Shown piece by piece: positions 4,382-54,981 of a stretch of 64,000 nt of DNA. Location of the stretch: contig NC_057719.1 of assembly GCF_004010195.1 (NCBI RefSeq), positions 41,920,139-41,984,138 of the forward strand, given 5' to 3'. The DNA is from Chiloscyllium plagiosum (taxonomy: Eukaryota). The notes beneath the pieces are model-generated. The model made no database searches, was not told where the DNA came from, and saw only the letters and a program-made list of their open reading frames with translations. The first letter of the stretch is position 1. Each line of letters begins with the position of its first letter. The position numbers and the translations under genes were made by a program.

Positions 4382-4582
4382 TCGAGCGTGTAGTGCTGGA
4401 AAAGCACAGCGGGTCAGGCAGCATCCGAGGATTAGGAAAATCGACGTTTCAGACATTAGCCCTTCATCAGGAACATCCTGATGCCTGAAACATCGATTTT
4501 CCTGCTCCTTGGATGCTGCCTGACCTGTTGTGCTTTTCCAGCCCCACACTGTCGACTCTGATCTCCAGCATCTCACTTTCTC
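4382..4582. mobile_element. Palindromic PLE terminal element (family A)
   Basis: Inverted arms; hammerhead core on minus at 4443-4470; TSD ctaatggtt(a/c)ggtg at 4368-4381 and 4583-4596. Confidence 0.8.
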
Positions 4583-7121: not shown

Positions 7122-7330
7122 TGGAAATGTGTTGCTGGAGAAGCGCAGCAGGTCAGGCAGCATCTAGGGAACAGGAGAATCAACGTTTCGGGCATTAGCC
7201 CTTCTTCAGGAAGGGCTAATGCCCGAAACGTCGATTCTCCTGTTCCCTAGATGCTGCCTGACCTGCTGCGCTTCTCCAGCAACACATTTCCATCTCTGAT
7301 CTCCAGCATCTGCAGACCTCATTTTCTCTT
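7122..7330. mobile_element. Palindromic PLE terminal element (family A)
   Basis: Near-perfect inverted arms; exact 14-bp TSD catgtttcaagtga at 7108-7121 and 7331-7344; hammerhead core on minus at 7182-7209. Confidence 0.88.
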
Positions 7331-7439
7331 CATGTTTCAAGTGACCTTGGCACAAAATGAAATCTGAGACATCTCCACCTCAGGTCACATGCTATGATAC
7401 AATAATAATTCAAGTGTTTATTAAAGGAACACTTGACAT

Positions 7440-13345: not shown

Positions 13346-13884
13346 AAGGGATATAGAGGGTCACTGGCAGCAAGGCATGAAGGTTGCTTTCAGCGTGTCA
13401 TCCTTTTCTTCATGGGTCCAAGCACTCAATAGCTATAAACTCCATACAACCCTGTCACGGTAGGTGCTGCAAGACGTGTCAGAGTGTGGACATAGATACC
13501 ACCATTACGCATGGGGGACACCTCCCACCTTGTACATGGCAGGTACTCATGTGACTCAGCCAACGTTGTCTATCTTATACGTTGCAGGCAAGGATGCCCG
13601 GAGGTATGGTACACTGGGGAAACTGAGCAAAGGCTACGACAACGGATAAATGGGCACCGCACAACAATCAACAGACAGGAGGGTTCCCTCCCAGTTGGGG
13701 AACACTTCAGTGGTCCAGGACATTCGAACTCAGACCTTCAGGTGACCATCATCCAAGGCAGACTTCGGGACAGGCAGCTGCGAAAAGTGGCCGAGCAGAG
13801 GCTGATAGCTAAGTTCGGTACCCATAGGGATGGCCTCAACTAGGACCTTGGGTTCATGTCACATTACAGGTGACCACCATTGCA

Positions 13885-16359: not shown

Positions 16360-16751
16360 AACAAGGACTGTAGATGCTGGAAACCAGATGCTAGATTAGA
16401 GTAGTACTGGAAAAGCACAGCAGTTCAGGCAGCATCCGAGGAGCAGGAAAATCGACGTAAGGTGATAGATCAGAAAGGAGGGTGGAGTGGAAGGTGGAAA
16501 GGAAGATAGGCATGTAGGACAATTCATGGGGACAGTACTGAGCTGGAAGTTTGGAACTGGAGTGAGGTGGAGGAAGAGGAAATGAGGAAACTGGTGAAGT
16601 CCACATTGATGTCCTGGGGTTGAAGTGTTCCGAGGTGGAAGATGAGGAGTTCTTCCTCCAGACATCGGGTGGTGAGGGAGCGGCGGTGAAGGAGGCCCAG
16701 GACATTCATGTCCTCGGCTGAGTGGGAAGGGGAGTTGAAATGCTGGACCAC
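16360..16751 (-). mobile_element. Penelope family A 3' fragment (GIY-YIG C-terminus and terminus; hammerhead deleted)
   Basis: VVQHFNSPSHSAEDMNVLGL...LEEELLIFHLGTLQPQDINVDF followed by the family-A terminal sequence. Confidence 0.85.
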
Positions 16752-16967
16752 CATCTTTCTGCCAAAGTATAACCAAGGCCCATTCAGTTGTCAGACTCTC
16801 TTGGTGCCTCCAAATGAACATTACTAGTTTCCTGCATTAGTTGAAAATAGTGTTGAGCATTATCAGAACAGGCATGATCTCATTGAATGGCAAAGAAGAT
16901 TAGATGGGTTGACTGGTCTCTTTCTGCATCTACATCTTATCTCTCTTATTGGGCTTACACTTACTAC

Positions 16968-17189
16968 CTGTTGAAAATGGATATTGATCACCATGTGGGA
17001 TCTGCTGCTGGTGGTGTTCCAGTTCGTTGTTGCGACACTTCTGTTCCGAATTCCTTGATCCAGTAAAGCCTCAAGTTGCTTAAAATTGCTACATGGCACT
17101 GATTTCAGACTCTCAACATAAAATCCATGTCTGCCTTCCCGCACACGCAGGCCATGAGGCTTACGAACCTTTGACAGGAGGTCTTGAAC
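16968..17189 (-). CDS. KIF28: KIF28-like kinesin, exon 5 (VQDLLSK...GLRVRE...GFYVESL...NTTSSRSHMVINIHFQQ)
   Basis: Switch I NxxSSRSH; acceptor ttctaag|GTT, donor CAG|GTAGTAAGT; 222 nt, phase 0. Confidence 0.92.
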
Positions 17190-17390
17190 CTTAGAAACCA
17201 AGTGTAAACATTAACATGGACAGGCATAGTATCAATGGAGTTGTCGTAGATAGAACAGATATGCAGGAACTAAACAGCAACAACACCCGATCATGTGAAT
17301 TAATCCAATGTAGGTCAATTAGAATGTTGCTGAAAATGTGTTGCTGGAAAAGCGCAGCTGGTCAGGCAGCATCCAAGGAACAGGAGAATC

Positions 17391-17418
17391 GACGTTTCGG
17401 GCATAAGCCCTTCTTCAG
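17391..17418 (-). ncRNA. Minimal hammerhead motif (family A) on the KIF28 sense strand
   Basis: CTGAAGA-A-GGGC-TTAT-GCCC-GAAAC-GTC on minus. Confidence 0.8.
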
Positions 17419-17426
17419 GAGAGCTC

Positions 17427-17454
17427 CTGAAGAAGGGCTTATGCCCGAAACGTC
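17427..17454 (+). ncRNA. Minimal hammerhead motif (family A)
   Basis: CTGAAGA-A-GGGC-TTAT-GCCC-GAAAC-GTC on plus. Confidence 0.8.
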
Positions 17455-17579
17455 GATTCTCCTGTTCCTTGGATGCTGCCTGACCTGCTGCGCTTTTCCA
17501 GCAACACATTTTCAGCTCTGATCTCCAGCATCTGCAAGTCCTCACTTTCTCCTCCAATTAGAATGTTACTTGGTTTGGG

Positions 17580-18060
17580 GAAATGTTTTATACTAGGTTT
17601 ATTTTTCAGGAGGCACACCGAGACAAATATTGACTCTGCCTGGAGAACCATCAACTCGTTGAAACACGCTTTGGTCTGCCTGAAACTTGTAAAGAGTTGA
17701 CCTCAACCAATGATGCAGACTGGCACATTCCAAGCTCTAGGACTACATGCTGAGGGACACATTAAAACCTGAGCTGGCTGCTGTCAAGGCACAGTGGGGA
17801 AAGACCACCATCTTTCTGCCAAAGTATAACCAAGGTCCCTTCAGTTGTCAGACTCTCTTGGTGCCTCCAAATAAACATTAATAGTTTCCTGCATTAGTTG
17901 AAAATGCCATTTTTTTCCAACTGTAGAAAAACCCTGAGGAATGTAAATGCTCCAATGCTTTTGTTTGATTTTCTCCATAAAGATTGTACTGAAGTGATTT
18001 AGTACATTTGTATGTACTTACAGATAATTTTATGAATAAAGTATATTTTCAAATAAAAAA
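17580..18060 (+). mobile_element. Tx1/L1-like LINE 3' fragment
   Basis: Broken C-terminal peptide AWRTINSLKHAL...CRLAHSKL*DYMLRD...AAVKAQWGKTT; ends tatgaataaagtatattttcaaataaaaaa. Confidence 0.65.
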
Positions 18061-31789: not shown

Positions 31790-32079
31790 GGGAGACAGGC
31801 TGCCTACTTGCGGAACATTTCAGAGAACACCTCTGGAACACCCGGACCAACCAACCCAACCACCCTGAGGCTCAACACTTCAACTCCCCCTCCCACTCCA
31901 CCAAGGACATGCAGGTCCTTGGACTCCTCCATCGCCAGACCATAGCAACACGACGGTTGGAGGAAGATGCTTGACACACTTTCCTCATTCCTGAAGAAGG
32001 GCTCATGCCCGAAATGTCGATTCTCCTGCTCCTTGGATACTGCCTGACCTGCTGCGCTTTTCCAGCAACACATTTTCAG
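31790..32079 (+). mobile_element. Penelope family A fragment (GIY-YIG remnant, internal deletion, hammerhead 31991-32018)
   Basis: AEHFREHLWNTRTNQPNHPEAQHFNSPSHSTKDMQVLGL; short TSD caccatt. Confidence 0.85.
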
Positions 32080-33994
32080 CACCATTCAAGACAAAACAGC
32101 CAACTTAATTGGTGCCACTTCCACAAATATTCACTCCCTCCACCACCAATGCATACTGGCAGCAATGCTTCCATTGTTAAGATGTACTGCATAAATTCAC
32201 CAAGCTCATACGACAGCATCTTCTAAACCCAAAAACACTACCATCTTGAAAGAGATGGTATCAGATACATGGGAATACCACCACCTATGAGTTCCTCTCC
32301 AAGCCACTCAACATCCTGACTTCAAAACATATTGCCGTTCTTTTAGTGTCACTGGGTCAAAAGCCTGGAACTCCCTCCCCAAATGCCGGGTGGGGGTAGC
32401 TACACTAAATAGATTGCAGTGGGTCAAGAAGGCAGCTGGTCATCATCTTCTCAAGGGCACGTAAGGATGGGCAGTAAGTACAAGCCCAGACAGCAATGCC
32501 CACTTGCCATGAATGAATTTTAAAAATTCCTGCATCACTCCAGCTAAAATAGATGTGGTAGTGTGGATATTCTATAAAAGAATCAATATGCCTAGAAACA
32601 TGGGTGTAGTAATGTGCAATTCTGTTGCAATACAATAAGACGTATTTCCTGAATGTGGTTGTTTACATTGTTGCTTAAACAAAACCTCTTGAACTTCCAG
32701 ACAGGAATTTCTTTCTTCGTGTAACCATCACAAGGTGCTAAGAAATTAAAACCCAGTGGAAAGCTTGCACTCATTCAGTCCCCAAAATGAAGGTTGCTGA
32801 CAGCTGTGTACTCAAACCTTAATAAGCCACTATCGGCAGTAATCCTCAACACAGTGCTCAGCAGATCATGACCAGAATTACCATGTGCTCAGTCAAGGAA
32901 TAAATATGCACTTGATGTGCAGCTAATCCACAATTAGTCGTAAACAAACACTTCACATCTAAAGAAGTATTACAGTTTCAATACACAGCTAATTTAGCAA
33001 AGGAAATGTGAACGCTTCAGGAGATCAGGAATATGAATGAAGGCCTGTTTGACGTTTTATATTCTTTATGATTTGAGATCAACTGTCATTTCTCCTGTAT
33101 TAGATAGTGAGAGTAGGCAACAGTAAGACTTATGAATGCAAAATTTGCTCTTGAGGTCTGAAGGATATCAGAGGGTCAGTCAGTTGCATTACCTTCTTAC
33201 AAAGAGTTTCAGAGAATGTACAACACTTATATAGACTGCTCCATGTTCCATATAGTTTTTTAAATGTGAATGAAACTACCATTAGAAAACAATGTACTAA
33301 AGAATACAAACTGCACAGCAAACAAACCTAGCAGTTACAAAATAAGATTTCACTGGAGACAACGCAACCCCCATTGTAGGTTGATGCACCACTTCTTGTT
33401 AGTCGGTTGTGCATATCTGTGAAACAGGAAACTGAGAGGATCACTTAAGGAGTTGGTCACATTTTACGTTAGGAGCATACAAGCAGAAAGAGATAGGGTG
33501 ACCACCAAACAGTTGAAGAGAGCAAAGCAGGCAGTGGATGGTGCTTGCTCCATCCTGAATATTGGTGAGGGCAAGGGAGAGCAGCTAGAGCCCATTTGTA
33601 GCACCACGACTGACTTAACTCCTCAGGGCAGGAGGAAGAAGAATAGAAGAGCAGTAATGTTAGGGGATGCTGCAATAAATCATTTCTGACTCCAGGATGG
33701 TGTGTTGCCCTCTCTGACCCAGAGTCAGCATCCCATACAGTGGCAGGTAAACTGACGACGAGCATCAACCAAGCTTAGAATGCAGCATAATGTCAGAAAG
33801 ACAAAGTTAAGGGCACTCTACCTGAATGCACAAAGCATTCCTTGAAGGTCACCACACTTCAGGTTTGAAAGATTAAAAAGGTAGGATCTTCATGGTAATC
33901 TCAGGAATCAAACCTATGCTGTTGGTGTCATTCTGCATCATAAATCAACCACCACCAAATTGTGCTAATCAACCACTTAGGTATTATAGTAATT

Positions 33995-35556: not shown

Positions 35557-36612
35557 AACATAGAAACACAGAAACGTAGAAGATAGGAGCAGGAGGAGGC
35601 CATTTGGTCCTTTAAGCCTGCTTTGCCATTCATCACGATCATAGTTGATTGTCCAACTCAACAGCCTAGTCCTGCTGTCTCCCTATAATCTTTGATCCCA
35701 TTCACCCCAAGTACAATATCTAGCCACCTCTTGAATAAAGTCAGTGTTTTGGCACCAACTACTTCCTGTGGTAATAGGTTCCACAGGCCGACCACTCTTT
35801 GGGTGAAGAAGTTTCTCCTCATTTCCATCCTAAATGATCTACCCCAAATCCTCAGAGTGTGATCCCTGGTTCTGGACACACCCACCATCAGAAACATCCT
35901 CCCTGTATCTACCCTGTTTAGTCCTGTTAGAATTTTAGAAGTCCCTATGAGATCCCCCCTCATTCGTCTGAACTCCAGGTAAAACAAGTCTAACCTTGTC
36001 AATCTCTCCTCATTCGTCAGTTCTGCCATCCCCAGAATCAGCCTGGTAAACCTTTGCTGTATTCCCTCTAGAGCAAGAGCATCCTTCCTCAGAAAAGGCT
36101 AGGTGTGGCCTTACCAAGGCCCTGTACAACCGCAACAACACATCCCTGCTCCTGTGCTTGAAACCTCTCACAATGAGCATCAACATACCATTTGCCTTCT
36201 TTACCGTCTGCTGCACCTGCATGCTTATCTTAGGTGACTGCTGGAAATGTGTTGCTGGAAAAGCGCAGCAGGTCAGGCAGCATCCAGGGAACAGGAGAAT
36301 CGACGTTTCGGGCATAAGCCCTTCCTGAAGAAGGGCTTATGCCCGAAACGTCGATTCTCCTGTTCCCTGGATGCTGCCTGACCTGCTGCGCTTTTCCAGC
36401 AACACATTTCCAGCTCTGATCTCCAGCATCTGCAGACCTCACTTTCTCCTATCTTAGGTGACTGGTGCACAAGAACATCCAGGTCCCACTGCACACTACC
36501 CCCCTCCCAATTTACGACCATTCAGGTAGTAATCTGCCTTCTTGTTTTTGCTTCCAAAGTGAATAACCTCACGTTTATCCAAGTTATACTACATCTGCCA
36601 TTGGTTTGCCCA
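35557..36612 (-). mobile_element. CR1 LINE 3' portion with nested PLE palindrome
   Basis: LEFRRMRGDLI...FFTQRVVGLWNLLP; LYRALVRPHL. Confidence 0.92.
36241..36449. mobile_element. Palindromic PLE element (family A) inside CR1; hammerhead on plus at 36325-36352
   Basis: Exact 15-bp TSD tatcttaggtgactg at 36226-36240 and 36450-36464. Confidence 0.9.
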
Positions 36613-48838: not shown

Positions 48839-51078
48839 AACACTTCAGAAGTACTTAATTGACTGCAAAGGACTTTGGGATATTCTGCTGTCAGGAACTT
48901 TGAGTTAGAGGCTTCCTTGTATTGTGTCTGTTTCCATAGAGTGCATTTTCTGCAACAGTTTGCCAGCGGCTATAGCTTGACGAATGCCTCTCCATTTCAA
49001 ATTTGCTGAGCAGAATGCCCTCTTCCTTTTACCAACTGCCACAGGTGTATGGTAGGATTTACAGGTTAATAATGAAATCACTTTCTGTGGTCATTACATG
49101 ATGGAATAGGACTCAAGCCCAGTGTTAAACTCAAAGGCTGGTACACAACCTTCTGTAACACAAAACATCCAAGTTCATGAAAGGCATAATTCTACATCTT
49201 TATTTTCTTCTTTCATAGGGACAACATTGCATTTACTAGCATTTCATGAACCTGACCCATCTTTGAACCTGGTTAAAGACTATTACAGATAGAAACAAAG
49301 ACTTGTTCTTTAACATCAAATATGAATATGGCATGTGTAGACTGCTTACCATAGTGAGACATAGACTAGAAGAAATTCATGCAGAAGCATACCAGTGCCT
49401 AGGCCTACATGCCCTTCAACAGGAAGAATATAAATTATAAATATTTTTGAATAACCTGGATGGAGTTTAATTTCTGCCACTGTGTTCAAAATGTTCAAAT
49501 GTTTAAAATGTTCATTTATTATTTCGACTGCTGTTTATGAGCATTTATTGGTTTTGCCACATACAAAAACAACATTTTGCAATAGTTATTATAACACAAA
49601 AAAAGTGGCTTGACCCATTGCAAAAGGAGAGAGAAAGTTGGTAAGGGTGAAAAGTAATTAACAATTCCAGTCTTCCTGTTGTTTTCTGATGTAAATTATG
49701 GTCTCTCTGGGGACTCATTTATTTTCCTGCAGAATACATATAATACAAACAATATGTAAATTCAGTATTTTGCATCTAAAAGCAAAACCAGTGTCAAAAT
49801 TGGGATTGAAAGGTAGCATTTACGGAACGGACAACATTTATTTTAAGTTAATCAACCATAAAAATGCTAATCGACTACAGCTGTACTTAATTATTAGTCA
49901 ATTATCTGGCTGACTTTCTACATGGCATGAAACAGATAGGAACTGCTTTTAGGCTTTTAGTTACCCTGCTGTCATCAATCCTCATCACGGCGTGTCTTGA
50001 TTTTGACAAGAGAGCAAGCATTGTCGGCAAGTAGACTCTATGCATCTGTGCAGCATGATGTGACCTTCCTGCTGAGTGTTGTGTCTTCTTGCCTATAGCA
50101 TGGAATATAAATGGCACTGAAAACTTCAGATAATTATGAAGCAGCAATGATAACTGCGGAGTAAAATAAGATATCAAAAATACTATGGGCATTATTATTT
50201 TTACTGATGTGATTGAAAAATGTTACGAAAGAGCTGCAAAGTGAATAGACATCTTTTGCTGTGGAAAGTCACGTGGGTTTTTATTATTGTTTCTGCAACA
50301 ACAAAAAAAATACTGCTGTGTTTCCAACACAACTTTATTGCCTGAAGGTACAAATTAAGATTAAAAACAGCACAATATCCTAATTCTAGGTTAATCTAAT
50401 TTTGATAGATATGTTAAATTCAAAGCCTAACTGGATTTAACAGTTGCTCCAATACTAAGGGTCAATTAGCTTCACAACTGAGTTAGCGTAAAATGTTAAT
50501 GGCTACAGAGCACACATTCTGTACTTGTTTGGGAGCCAGTAGCTGCCAATTGGCTTGAATACAAGCATGGCTGATGTCTCGAGTGAGATGTAACCATCCC
50601 ACAGATGTGACACCAGGGATCCACAGTGAGGACATATCTAGTGGCTATGTGGTGCACAATTAGCTACTTTGCAAACAATTTTTTTAAATCTCATATGTGA
50701 GAAGCATTTGAACATTTTTCACAATTGCTGTCTATACTCAGATACTGTTTATTAGAATTATGTTCATCAAGAATATATGAAACATGAACAGGAGCACACT
50801 ATCTGGCCCCTTGAATCTTCTTAACCATTCAGGGAGATCATTGTTGTTCTAATTGTGGCCTTCTTGATTAATATTCTGTTTAGCTCAGCTTTGGATAAAC
50901 TCAATGATCCAGCCTCCACTGCCTCTCTGTGGAGGATTCCAAAAATTAAAGACACTTCTGAGAAAAGTTTCTCCTCTGGTTAGTCTTAAATTGGAGGTCA
51001 CATGTATTGAATTTGTGCTAGATTCCCCTTTGATGGGATATGTACTCTCAGCAGCTACCTTGCCTAGTCTCTTCAGAA

Positions 51079-51293
51079 GAGAAAGTGAGGACTGCAGATG
51101 CTGGAGATCAGAGCTGAAAATGTGTTGCTGGAAAAGCACAGCAGGTCAGGCAGCATCCAAGGAACAGAAGAATCGACGTTTCGGGCATAAGCCCTTCTTC
51201 AGGAATGAAGAAAGTGTGTCCAGCAGGCTAAGATAAAAGGTAGGGAGGAGTCCTGCTGACCTGCTGCGCTTTTCCAGCAACACATTTTCAGCT
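51079..51293. mobile_element. Asymmetric inverted PLE family A element; intact hammerhead core on minus at 51175-51202
   Basis: Long minus arm plus ~40-nt plus arm; TSD cta(g/a)tctc(t/c)tcagaa at 51064-51078 and 51294-51308. Confidence 0.85.
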
Positions 51294-51334
51294 CTAATCT
51301 CCTCAGAATCCTGTATGTCTCAATCAGATCATGT

Positions 51335-53765: not shown

Positions 53766-54711
53766 TGCCAGTATATTTAGTTTTCTGACTGTTAGCCCCA
53801 GCAAACAACATTGCATGCATGAATAAAGTGACAGCAATGTAATGTGACATCTTCACAAATAGAATTTAATTTTGAAAAATGTCCGCGTGACTTTTTTGTT
53901 TTCGAGTTTCATGTTAATAACAATGGAGTTGGCCATGCATGGTTTGGCTGGGATGTAAAGCTTCACTGATTGACCAGAAGGCTTTCTTTTATCTCACCCA
54001 TAGCAGCAGCATTGTGGGAAAAGGGTGCCCCTCTTGGGAATCACACGTTTCATGTGCATGCTGCCAGCATTGGATTTTAATTAAAGTCCCATGGAAAAGG
54101 GCGGGAAAGCAAGAAGCTGGAAGCAGCAAAGTCTTTACGTTCCACCACTGGGTGCAGCATGCCACTGACAAAATTCTGCCCTTTGTATCTTGCTCACAAT
54201 TACCACCTATTTTTCTATAATAAATAGTTCAAACCCCAGCACTGATTATTGTGGTGTTCCACTAGTTACTTTGCCAGTCTGGCAAAAGATCCCTTCTGAC
54301 CTATAAACTACGAAGGATTCATGCCTCTTGTGAAATGTGAAAGTTCCTGTTAAATGTCATCAACTCCTCCAGCTGTGCCTCTTCACAAGGTCCTGGGGAT
54401 CTCAGGGCTTCACCTCAGTGACATTAAACACATCCAGCTGTGTCACTCAGGCAACTGAAAGTGCCTTCATATTTTAGATGTCAAATTCACAGAATCCTAA
54501 TTTAATAATGACTGGAACTTGAAGCATGCTTTTAAATAATTCTTTCAACACATTCATTATTTATATCAAGAATAAATTATGAATTATTTACATCGATCAA
54601 CACAAACCAAATGGAATACACCAATACATTTCTCTTTAAGAAGGGTAGAAGTTCAGCAAAAATTGTATTTAACTCAATCAGAAACAAGAGGTAGAATCTT
54701 ACAGAAGCCTG

Positions 54712-54981
54712 AACAACAGTTGGAGGAAGAGCGCCTCATCTTCTGCCTGGGAACCCCCCAACCACAAGGGATGAACTCAGATTTCTCCAGTTTCCTCATT
54801 TCCCCTCCCCCCACCTTGTCTTTCCAACGCCCCTCCCCCAAGTCCCTCCTCCCTACCTTTTATCTTGGCCTGCTGGGCACACTTTCCTCATTCCTGAAGA
54901 AGGGCTTATGCCCGAAACGTCGATTCTCCTGTTCCTTGGATGCTGCCTGACCTGCTGCGCTTTTCCAGCAACACATTTTCA
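54712..54981 (+). mobile_element. Penelope family A 3' fragment with intact hammerhead core (54894-54921)
   Basis: LEEERLIFCLGTPQPQGMNSDF then CTGAAGAAGGGCTTATGCCCGAAACGTC. Confidence 0.88.

Follow-up and report, generated by a model that had tools for sequence, protein, structure and literature searches.

What is a palindrome with a hammerhead motif on each strand doing so close to a splice acceptor of the kinesin gene KIF28, and how did it get there? In the 64,000-nt stretch of Chiloscyllium plagiosum DNA analyzed here (the window), an initial annotation had drawn attention to this feature. We consider, with a probability of about 0.85, that it consists of two 5'-truncated ends of the pseudo-LTR (pLTR) of a Penelope-like element (PLE), placed head to head, likely copied twice after a double nick and probably functionless for KIF28. 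The pLTR origin, which the initial annotation had not named, accounts for every structural feature.

A young insertion in a KIF28 intron

The neighbouring exons encode a kinesin (Pfam Kinesin) whose closest relatives are bamboo-shark KIF28. The gene lies on the - strand, where seven coding exons were located by tblastn from 27920 to 3157. Coding exon 5 (16968..17189, - strand) matches residues 163-240 of bamboo-shark KIF28 P0002 at 96% in tblastn and belongs to the Pfam Kinesin domain. Its acceptor AG is found at 17191-17190, separated by 139 bp from the insertion, as the distance of about 140 bp given previously had implied. Branch-point-like motifs at -21 and -42 are located between the insertion and this acceptor and are intact. 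A 103-bp direct repeat (96%), with copies at 16746-16848 and 17803-17905 and a spacing of 1057 bp, flanks both exon 5 and the element. The left copy of this repeat has as neighbours a PLE endonuclease fragment (16751-16668) and the pLTR of that fragment (16458-16364).

The insertion occupies positions 17329-17554 of the window (226 bp) and is a near-perfect palindrome with a one-sided tail. It is bordered by a 13-bp target-site duplication (TSD), with identical left (17316..17328) and right (17555..17567) copies; in 192 control trials at random positions, no 'TSD' called was longer than 8 nt. When positions are numbered relative to C3 of the hammerhead, the tail-less arm (17329..17420, - strand) corresponds to an inverted, 5'-truncated pLTR end from -2 to +89. 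The tailed arm comprises the part common to both arms (17425..17516, + strand, likewise a 5'-truncated pLTR end from -2 to +89), followed by the PLE 'tail' of 38 bp that is present on this side only (17517..17554, + strand) and that has one extra base near 17536 compared with family copies. Between the arms lies a 4-nt junction (17421..17424) that is non-native, i.e. it differs from the native upstream sequence of long copies; one base pair forms within it, and a loop of 2 nt remains. With the junction pair included, each inverted arm has 93 positions (17329-17421 versus 17424-17516); 92 of these are paired, and one is a T.T mismatch (17359/17486). The initial annotation was thus correct about the 226-bp insertion, its exact 13-bp TSD and a one-sided tail of about 40 bp. 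Its perfect palindrome with identical arms of about 90 bp stands as inverted arms of 93 bp, but these are neither perfect nor identical.

Contigs from other sequencing runs bear on the reality and the age of this structure. In a related organism (organism B), two contigs (X9 record 24 and X12 record 9) pass from 17315 to 17555 with no letters between. This empty site, with one target copy, was found in both organism-B runs compared, which come from two studies, and the flanks there show 10 and 12 differences per 462 bases (2.2-2.6%) relative to the window. Contigs of organism A, from three samples and two studies, cross the left junction, from flank to inverted arm (17162-17352 in X1, 16950-17350 in X3 and 16900-17350 in X2). 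These left-junction contigs, together with the empty site in the ~2.5%-diverged organism B, indicate that the insertion is real and young, in agreement with the age first proposed. That the palindrome is an assembly artefact, created by a false inverted duplication, is hardly credible. The centre and the right junction of 17329-17554 are spanned by none of the independent contig pieces listed, which an artefact would explain. However, the left flank joins the inverted arm in all three organism-A samples, the TSD is exact and agrees with the empty site of organism B, one base differs between the arms, and the same architecture recurs across the genome. Its presence or absence can serve as a marker to tell two close sharks apart.

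Penelope-like origin of the arms and of their hammerhead cores

The arms are almost certainly derived from the pLTR of a PLE. Arm sequence occurs at 11-12 places in the window and is found directly 3' of a PLE endonuclease C-terminus at 54576-54981 and at 31792-32080. At locus L035, it directly follows an ORF that combines an RVT_1 domain, a C-x4-C-x2-C linker and a GIY-YIG domain; the RVT_1 match (E 4e-6, 27 bits) is under the Pfam cut-off of 29.6 and the GIY-YIG match (E 2.6e-5) is over the cut-off. An arm unit was also present 1.3-1.9 kb downstream of the reverse transcriptase (RT), in the same orientation, in all six of the 9-kb stretches chosen around RT matches. Because of this position 3' of an RT and GIY-YIG ORF, we regard the arm as the 3' part of the pLTR of an endonuclease-bearing (EN+) PLE. 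Four features expected for such an element were found: a pLTR linked to an RT-GIY-YIG ORF, an inverted 5'-truncated pLTR at the 5' side, a one-sided tail and a TSD. The C-x4-C-x2-C motif just before GIY-YIG in L035 marks the element as a putative Neptune/Nematis-type PLE. This label rests on the linker, described as a mark of these groups (PMC8557442), and on the report of Neptune in fishes (PMC4209133). A full-length pLTR-ORF-pLTR parent in partial tandem would have a 5' pLTR that continues into the ORF; among the loci inspected, where 150 RT matches were scored of 46,398 candidates, no such copy was seen. The palindrome of L170 was considered as the 5' end of a full-length element and rejected, as it has its own TSD-like repeat and its post-tail sequence is unmatched in the nine RT-bearing loci checked. 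The window also contains, at 13496-13840, a fragment of another PLE endonuclease of GIY-YIG type, which is more distant (31% to the domain of L035).

An inverted 5'-truncated copy with a tail of 30-40 bp at one end has been described as the typical footprint of PLEs, and the origin of the inverted pLTR and of the one-sided tail was stated there to be open (PMC8557442). In rotifer PLEs, including Pen2a_Av, inverted pLTRs with TSDs of 8-10 bp and junction palindromes have been reported (PMC3846280). The shark unit shares with Pen2a_Av-type insertions the head-to-head 5'-truncated pLTR, the one-sided tail, the TSD and the pLTR hammerhead; it differs in consisting only of two pLTR ends with no ORF, in its TSD of 13 bp, and in a number of units that is extrapolated to about 10^5 per genome.

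Descriptor matches place one minimal hammerhead core at 17391..17418 on the - strand, which is the strand of the KIF28 pre-mRNA (predicted cut between 17391 and 17390), and the other at 17427..17454 on the + strand (predicted cut between 17454 and 17455). The + strand core is composed of CUGAAGA, an extra A, a 4-bp helix II with a 4-nt loop, GAAA, C15.2-G16.2 and UC. The core boxes, the extra nucleotide between 9 and 10.1, G10.1-C11.1 and the palindromic 15.2-16.2 are present on both strands, and both cores are without helix III or loop 3 (GAAA-CG-UC). In helix I, the native 5' strand is cut short at -2 and continued by junction sequence, so that two native pairs are left; the junction of this unit gives a longer, fortuitous helix I, which is better on the + than on the - strand. 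Of the complete hammerhead assigned to each strand by the initial annotation, the core and helix II are thus present, whereas helix III is absent and the 5' strand of helix I is cut at -2. A canonical three-helix hammerhead was rejected, since helix III is missing and the Rfam hammerhead models gave no match to the feature at gathering score, nor at E<=10.

Judged from the motifs, both cores are putative minimal hammerheads (min-HHRs) of the class described in PMC4209133, the weak, dimer-dependent kind known from PLEs. They have in common with that class the CUGANGA and GAAA boxes, the extra base at 9/10.1, G10.1-C11.1, the palindromic 15.2-16.2 and the lack of loop 3. Helix II measures 4 bp in the shark and 7-8 bp in the Schistosoma min-HHRs. 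The min-HHR pairs of that report lie 100-700 bp apart on opposite strands, whereas the shark cores are 8 bp apart, have junction sequence as 5' strand of helix I and possess no same-strand dimer partner (PMC4209133). For min-HHRs, the monomer was reported not to cleave and dimer cleavage was low (PMC4209133); cleavage of minimal hammerheads as dimers is also covered in a review (PMC6765202), and the hammerhead motif of an Anolis PLE required the protein of the element (PMC11167929). The descriptor gave 54 matches in 120 unselected 10-kb stretches of the genome and none in each of five shuffles; among these matches loop II is variable and its stem is kept. A second min-HHR family, which accounts for nine of the 54 matches (loci L046-L165), has a 5-bp helix II, a C-G to G-C change at 15.2-16.2 and a covarying helix I. 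Of 43 sampled head-to-head units, only three retain both cores intact, so the KIF28 unit is cleaner than most. By extrapolation, units with two intact cores would still number thousands genome-wide.

The predicted fold of the - strand has an energy of -197 kcal/mol (z = -25.6), which none of 200 shuffles equalled, and forcing the hammerhead core open would cost about 49 kcal/mol on either strand. RNA folding prediction is thus consistent with the earlier proposal that a long hairpin masks the ribozyme in the KIF28 pre-mRNA. On either strand the antisense arm would be transcribed first, and the ribozyme may thereby be zipped into the 93-bp hairpin and stay silent in the pre-mRNA. Ribozyme activity at this locus appears unlikely, because helix I is truncated at -2, the sole partner motif is antisense and opening of the core is predicted to be costly. 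A microRNA precursor was also considered. The best match to Rfam miRNA families reached 55 bits versus 99 required, and the matches were symmetric on both strands, as for a generic hairpin; this candidate was rejected.

Abundance and formation of head-to-head units

To place the unit in its genomic context, a census was made of 120 unselected 10-kb stretches whose positions were round numbers on the 45 largest contigs, with a total of 1.2 Mb minus 43,513 bases, i.e. 1.156 Mb, small contigs being left out. It yielded 43 compact head-to-head units and 118 single matches. The resulting 37 units per Mb, or about one per 27 kb, extrapolate to approximately 132,000 units genome-wide (95% CI 96,000-178,000). 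The window contains six of them, and four are located in KIF28, where three further units are found in introns at 4394, 7122 and 19948. Adjacent pairs were head-to-head in 43 cases versus tail-to-tail in three, and the 3' ends across copies are bimodal, near +90 and at +123 to +128. In the young units (n=15) the TSD has a median length of 13 nt, with a called range of 4-18 nt; automated TSD calls on single copies were of chance length and were left out. The KIF28 unit is an ordinary, clean PLE insertion stub, and the architecture of the class has already been published. Searches by title and abstract gave no shark-specific account of such palindromes or of PLE twin priming, most subscription journals and Repbase being outside their coverage.

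Several units depart from the simplest form. Two young palindromic units of the window, at 7122-7331 (TSD of 14 bp) and 36240-36450 (15 bp), are built of arms that overlap at the 5' edge of the hammerhead through a short stretch of inverted microhomology. At 51076-51302, a tailed arm that extends to -48 is joined to a short inverted arm starting from +53, with no clear TSD. The centres of the units L074:4988-5235 and L155:3502-3701 hold a short additional copy of the hammerhead region, which suggests template slipping at the join. In an older related hammerhead family (L059:132-408, L129:5548-5859 and also L086:2093-2385), the palindromic arms extend further inward. The centres of L059 and L129 are near-identical over 80 nt; they were maybe copied as a unit, or the pLTR may have its own hairpin.

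Could the palindromes be a self-propagating, non-autonomous element of MITE-like or retrozyme-like type that moves as a unit? A MITE has terminal inverted repeats at both ends, a fixed centre and a short TSD of fixed length across copies. The high copy number of similar palindromes of 200-230 bp would fit such an element, as would the shared centre of L059 and L129 in the older family. The 32-nt junction pattern of the KIF28 unit, however, has one occurrence in the 3.56-Gb genome, and centres of the young family differ between copies, a single microhomology junction (L064, L128) being found more than once among the 43. The tail is one-sided and the TSD length is variable. On these three grounds MITE identity was rejected. 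Retrozymes have direct repeats with same-strand hammerheads and are able to release a monomer (cf. PMC7229834). Here the hammerhead motifs are on opposite strands and not in tandem, and retrozyme identity was rejected as well. We therefore regard movement of the palindrome as a unit as very improbable, and the uniqueness of its centre argues that the palindrome was made at insertion from two PLE pLTR ends.

How the two ends were joined is less certain. It seems reasonably probable that two coupled reverse-transcription events took place on one source RNA (double priming). The GIY-YIG endonuclease would cut both strands of an AT-rich site, the nicks being 13 nt apart. From the left flank, the free 3' end would then prime reverse transcription at an inner start site of about +89; that of the right flank would do so at an outer site of about +127, where the tail ends, and uncleaved RNA would serve as the template. 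Both cDNAs would halt close to the 5' edge of the hammerhead and be joined via the four non-native bases.

The census units bear on this scheme in several ways. Exactly one tail is present in 37 of the 43 units, none in six and two in no unit; all six tail-free units belong to the older class, and each of the 15 young units is single-tailed. Since independent choice of start sites would yield units with two tails, the two ends appear to be coupled. In the one-tail units (n=37), the tail-less arm extends at least 5 nt further 5' in 18, the reverse holds in six and the arms are even (within 4 nt) in 13. Each arm of the 18 units has sequence missing from the other, which plain fold-back of a single cDNA would not produce. 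As for the template, 73 of 86 arm 5' ends are located upstream of the predicted cut and 51 are within -8..+2, so the RNA was probably mostly uncleaved; only four of the 86 are at the ribozyme cut (+27..+30), a weak enrichment. A cap-derived G at the 5' end of the arms was also considered. At -5, G was found in six of 40 anchors with non-native upstream sequence (two of these six being one junction read from both strands) against a background of 21% (p = 0.87), and positions -6 to -9 are confounded by subfamily differences; a cap-derived G at -5 was not borne out.

Subfamily variants were compared in 19 units, four of them from the window. The two arms of an insertion agree in 65 of 68 comparisons at four subfamily-diagnostic columns, versus about 37 expected if they were independent, and in 139 of 154 over all nine variable columns (106 expected). 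Arm divergence is 2.1% within and 5.9% between insertions. Arms of one insertion thus come from one source or were homogenised later.

These variants common to both arms are also compatible with fold-back, in which a cDNA running from the tail to -2 would receive a few untemplated bases, snap back, be copied to +89 and be joined to the other nick. Fold-back is a minority explanation in our judgement, yet it fits the KIF28 unit, where both arms end at -2 around a 2-nt loop, as well as double priming does; it is other copies that speak for double priming. It also fits the 13 even units and the six with a longer tailed arm, and junction palindromes have been taken as a sign of self-priming (PMC3846280). 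Moreover, the ends of the arms were taken from BLAST alignments and lose sharpness in old copies, the 15 young units split evenly (tail-less arm longer in five, tailed arm longer in five, even in five), and a part of the signal could be mimicked if the arms had later undergone deletion or gene conversion with each other. Fold-back nevertheless leaves the extra 5' sequence of the tail-less arm in the 18 units unexplained unless deletions followed. The tail-less end at about +90 is also a frequent 3' end of single ORF-following copies, as expected for a true RT start site. We thus prefer double priming.

Double priming has parallels. In LINE-1 twin priming, both nicked strands prime reverse transcription and an inverted 5' part results, the two parts coming from different stretches of the RNA. 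The shark arms, in contrast, have 92 nt in common and two fixed starting points. The protein of the Anolis carolinensis Poseidon element, PAc, was reported to nick and extend both strands in vitro; two RT start sites delimit the tail, uncleaved RNA is used so that ribozyme cleavage is unnecessary, and the target is AT-rich (PMC11167929). The shark family appears to agree with PAc in the two start sites, the extension of both strands, the AT-rich target and the uncleaved template; it differs by a CxxC linker of Neptune/Nematis type, which separates its RT from its endonuclease. The in vitro PAc data answer only partly how PLEs form the inverted pLTR and the one-sided tail (PMC11167929). A more general proposal, to which we give even odds, is that shark Neptune-type PLEs integrate by obligatorily coupled double priming, with two fixed start sites (the tail end and the inner site, neither being used twice in one insertion), one RNP and the same uncleaved RNA, so that short insertions are born as hairpins of about 90 bp.

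Consequences for KIF28 and for shark genomes

Does the insertion matter for KIF28? A working regulatory element, whose hairpin would be edited by ADAR or diced and would alter exon 5 splicing or the transcript level, is suggested by the near-perfect 93-bp duplex predicted, by the proximity of the exon 5 acceptor, and by the heavy ADAR editing reported for palindromic Xenopus Harbinger and lizard Penelope repeats (PMC5625713). We judge such an element highly unlikely. The insertion is missing in a relative that is ~2.5% diverged, three more units are present in introns of the same gene at a genome-wide density of about one per 27 kb, the acceptor and the branch-point-like motifs are untouched, and incidental editing is not function. 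The special, locus-specific role near exon 5 that the initial annotation implied thus gave way to a standard PLE footprint. In all likelihood the insertion is without selected function, which we infer from its youth, abundance and position. ADAR editing of the hairpin is plausible by precedent, and would perhaps occur incidentally where KIF28 is expressed. The shark unit resembles the edited Harbinger and lizard Penelope repeats in being a self-folding repeat of about 200 bp that would form tight dsRNA in a pre-mRNA. Its palindromes are built anew at each insertion and not from a palindromic consensus, and the observed editing is that of the frog and lizard repeats (PMC5625713).

RNA reads were also inspected. 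In run X21, of which about 2% was examined, 464 reads matched, none on KIF28 exons and 99% continuing into other loci; in this run the PLE family is transcribed from other loci. X22 gave no reads, and X19 contigs were found on repeats only. Read starts did not accumulate at the predicted ribozyme cut, although a poly(A) single-cell library of this sort would not reveal cleavage. A>G/T>C changes in X21 at 17380, 17440, 17465 and 17469 were rejected as signs of editing, as the contigs show the same differences as family variants at four of the five positions of this kind. In run X1, which carries the element, a contig covers 16966-17191, i.e. exon 5 and two bases shared with the neighbouring exons at each end, at a depth of 19 versus 8 in the intron. 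This contig fits a mix of spliced and unspliced RNA, the kind of run being off record, and gives a weak hint of normal splicing.

By itself this locus has little weight, as one neutral-looking insertion among about 10^5; the class is weightier. Thousands of young units with exact ends make double priming and fold-back distinguishable from sequence alone. If the coupled mechanism is true, the ~10^5 palindromes would constitute a natural library for reading PLE integration and the shark counterpart of inverted Alu pairs, i.e. a main ADAR/dsRNA load. If many of these units are transcribed within introns, they would be a large endogenous source of dsRNA in sharks.
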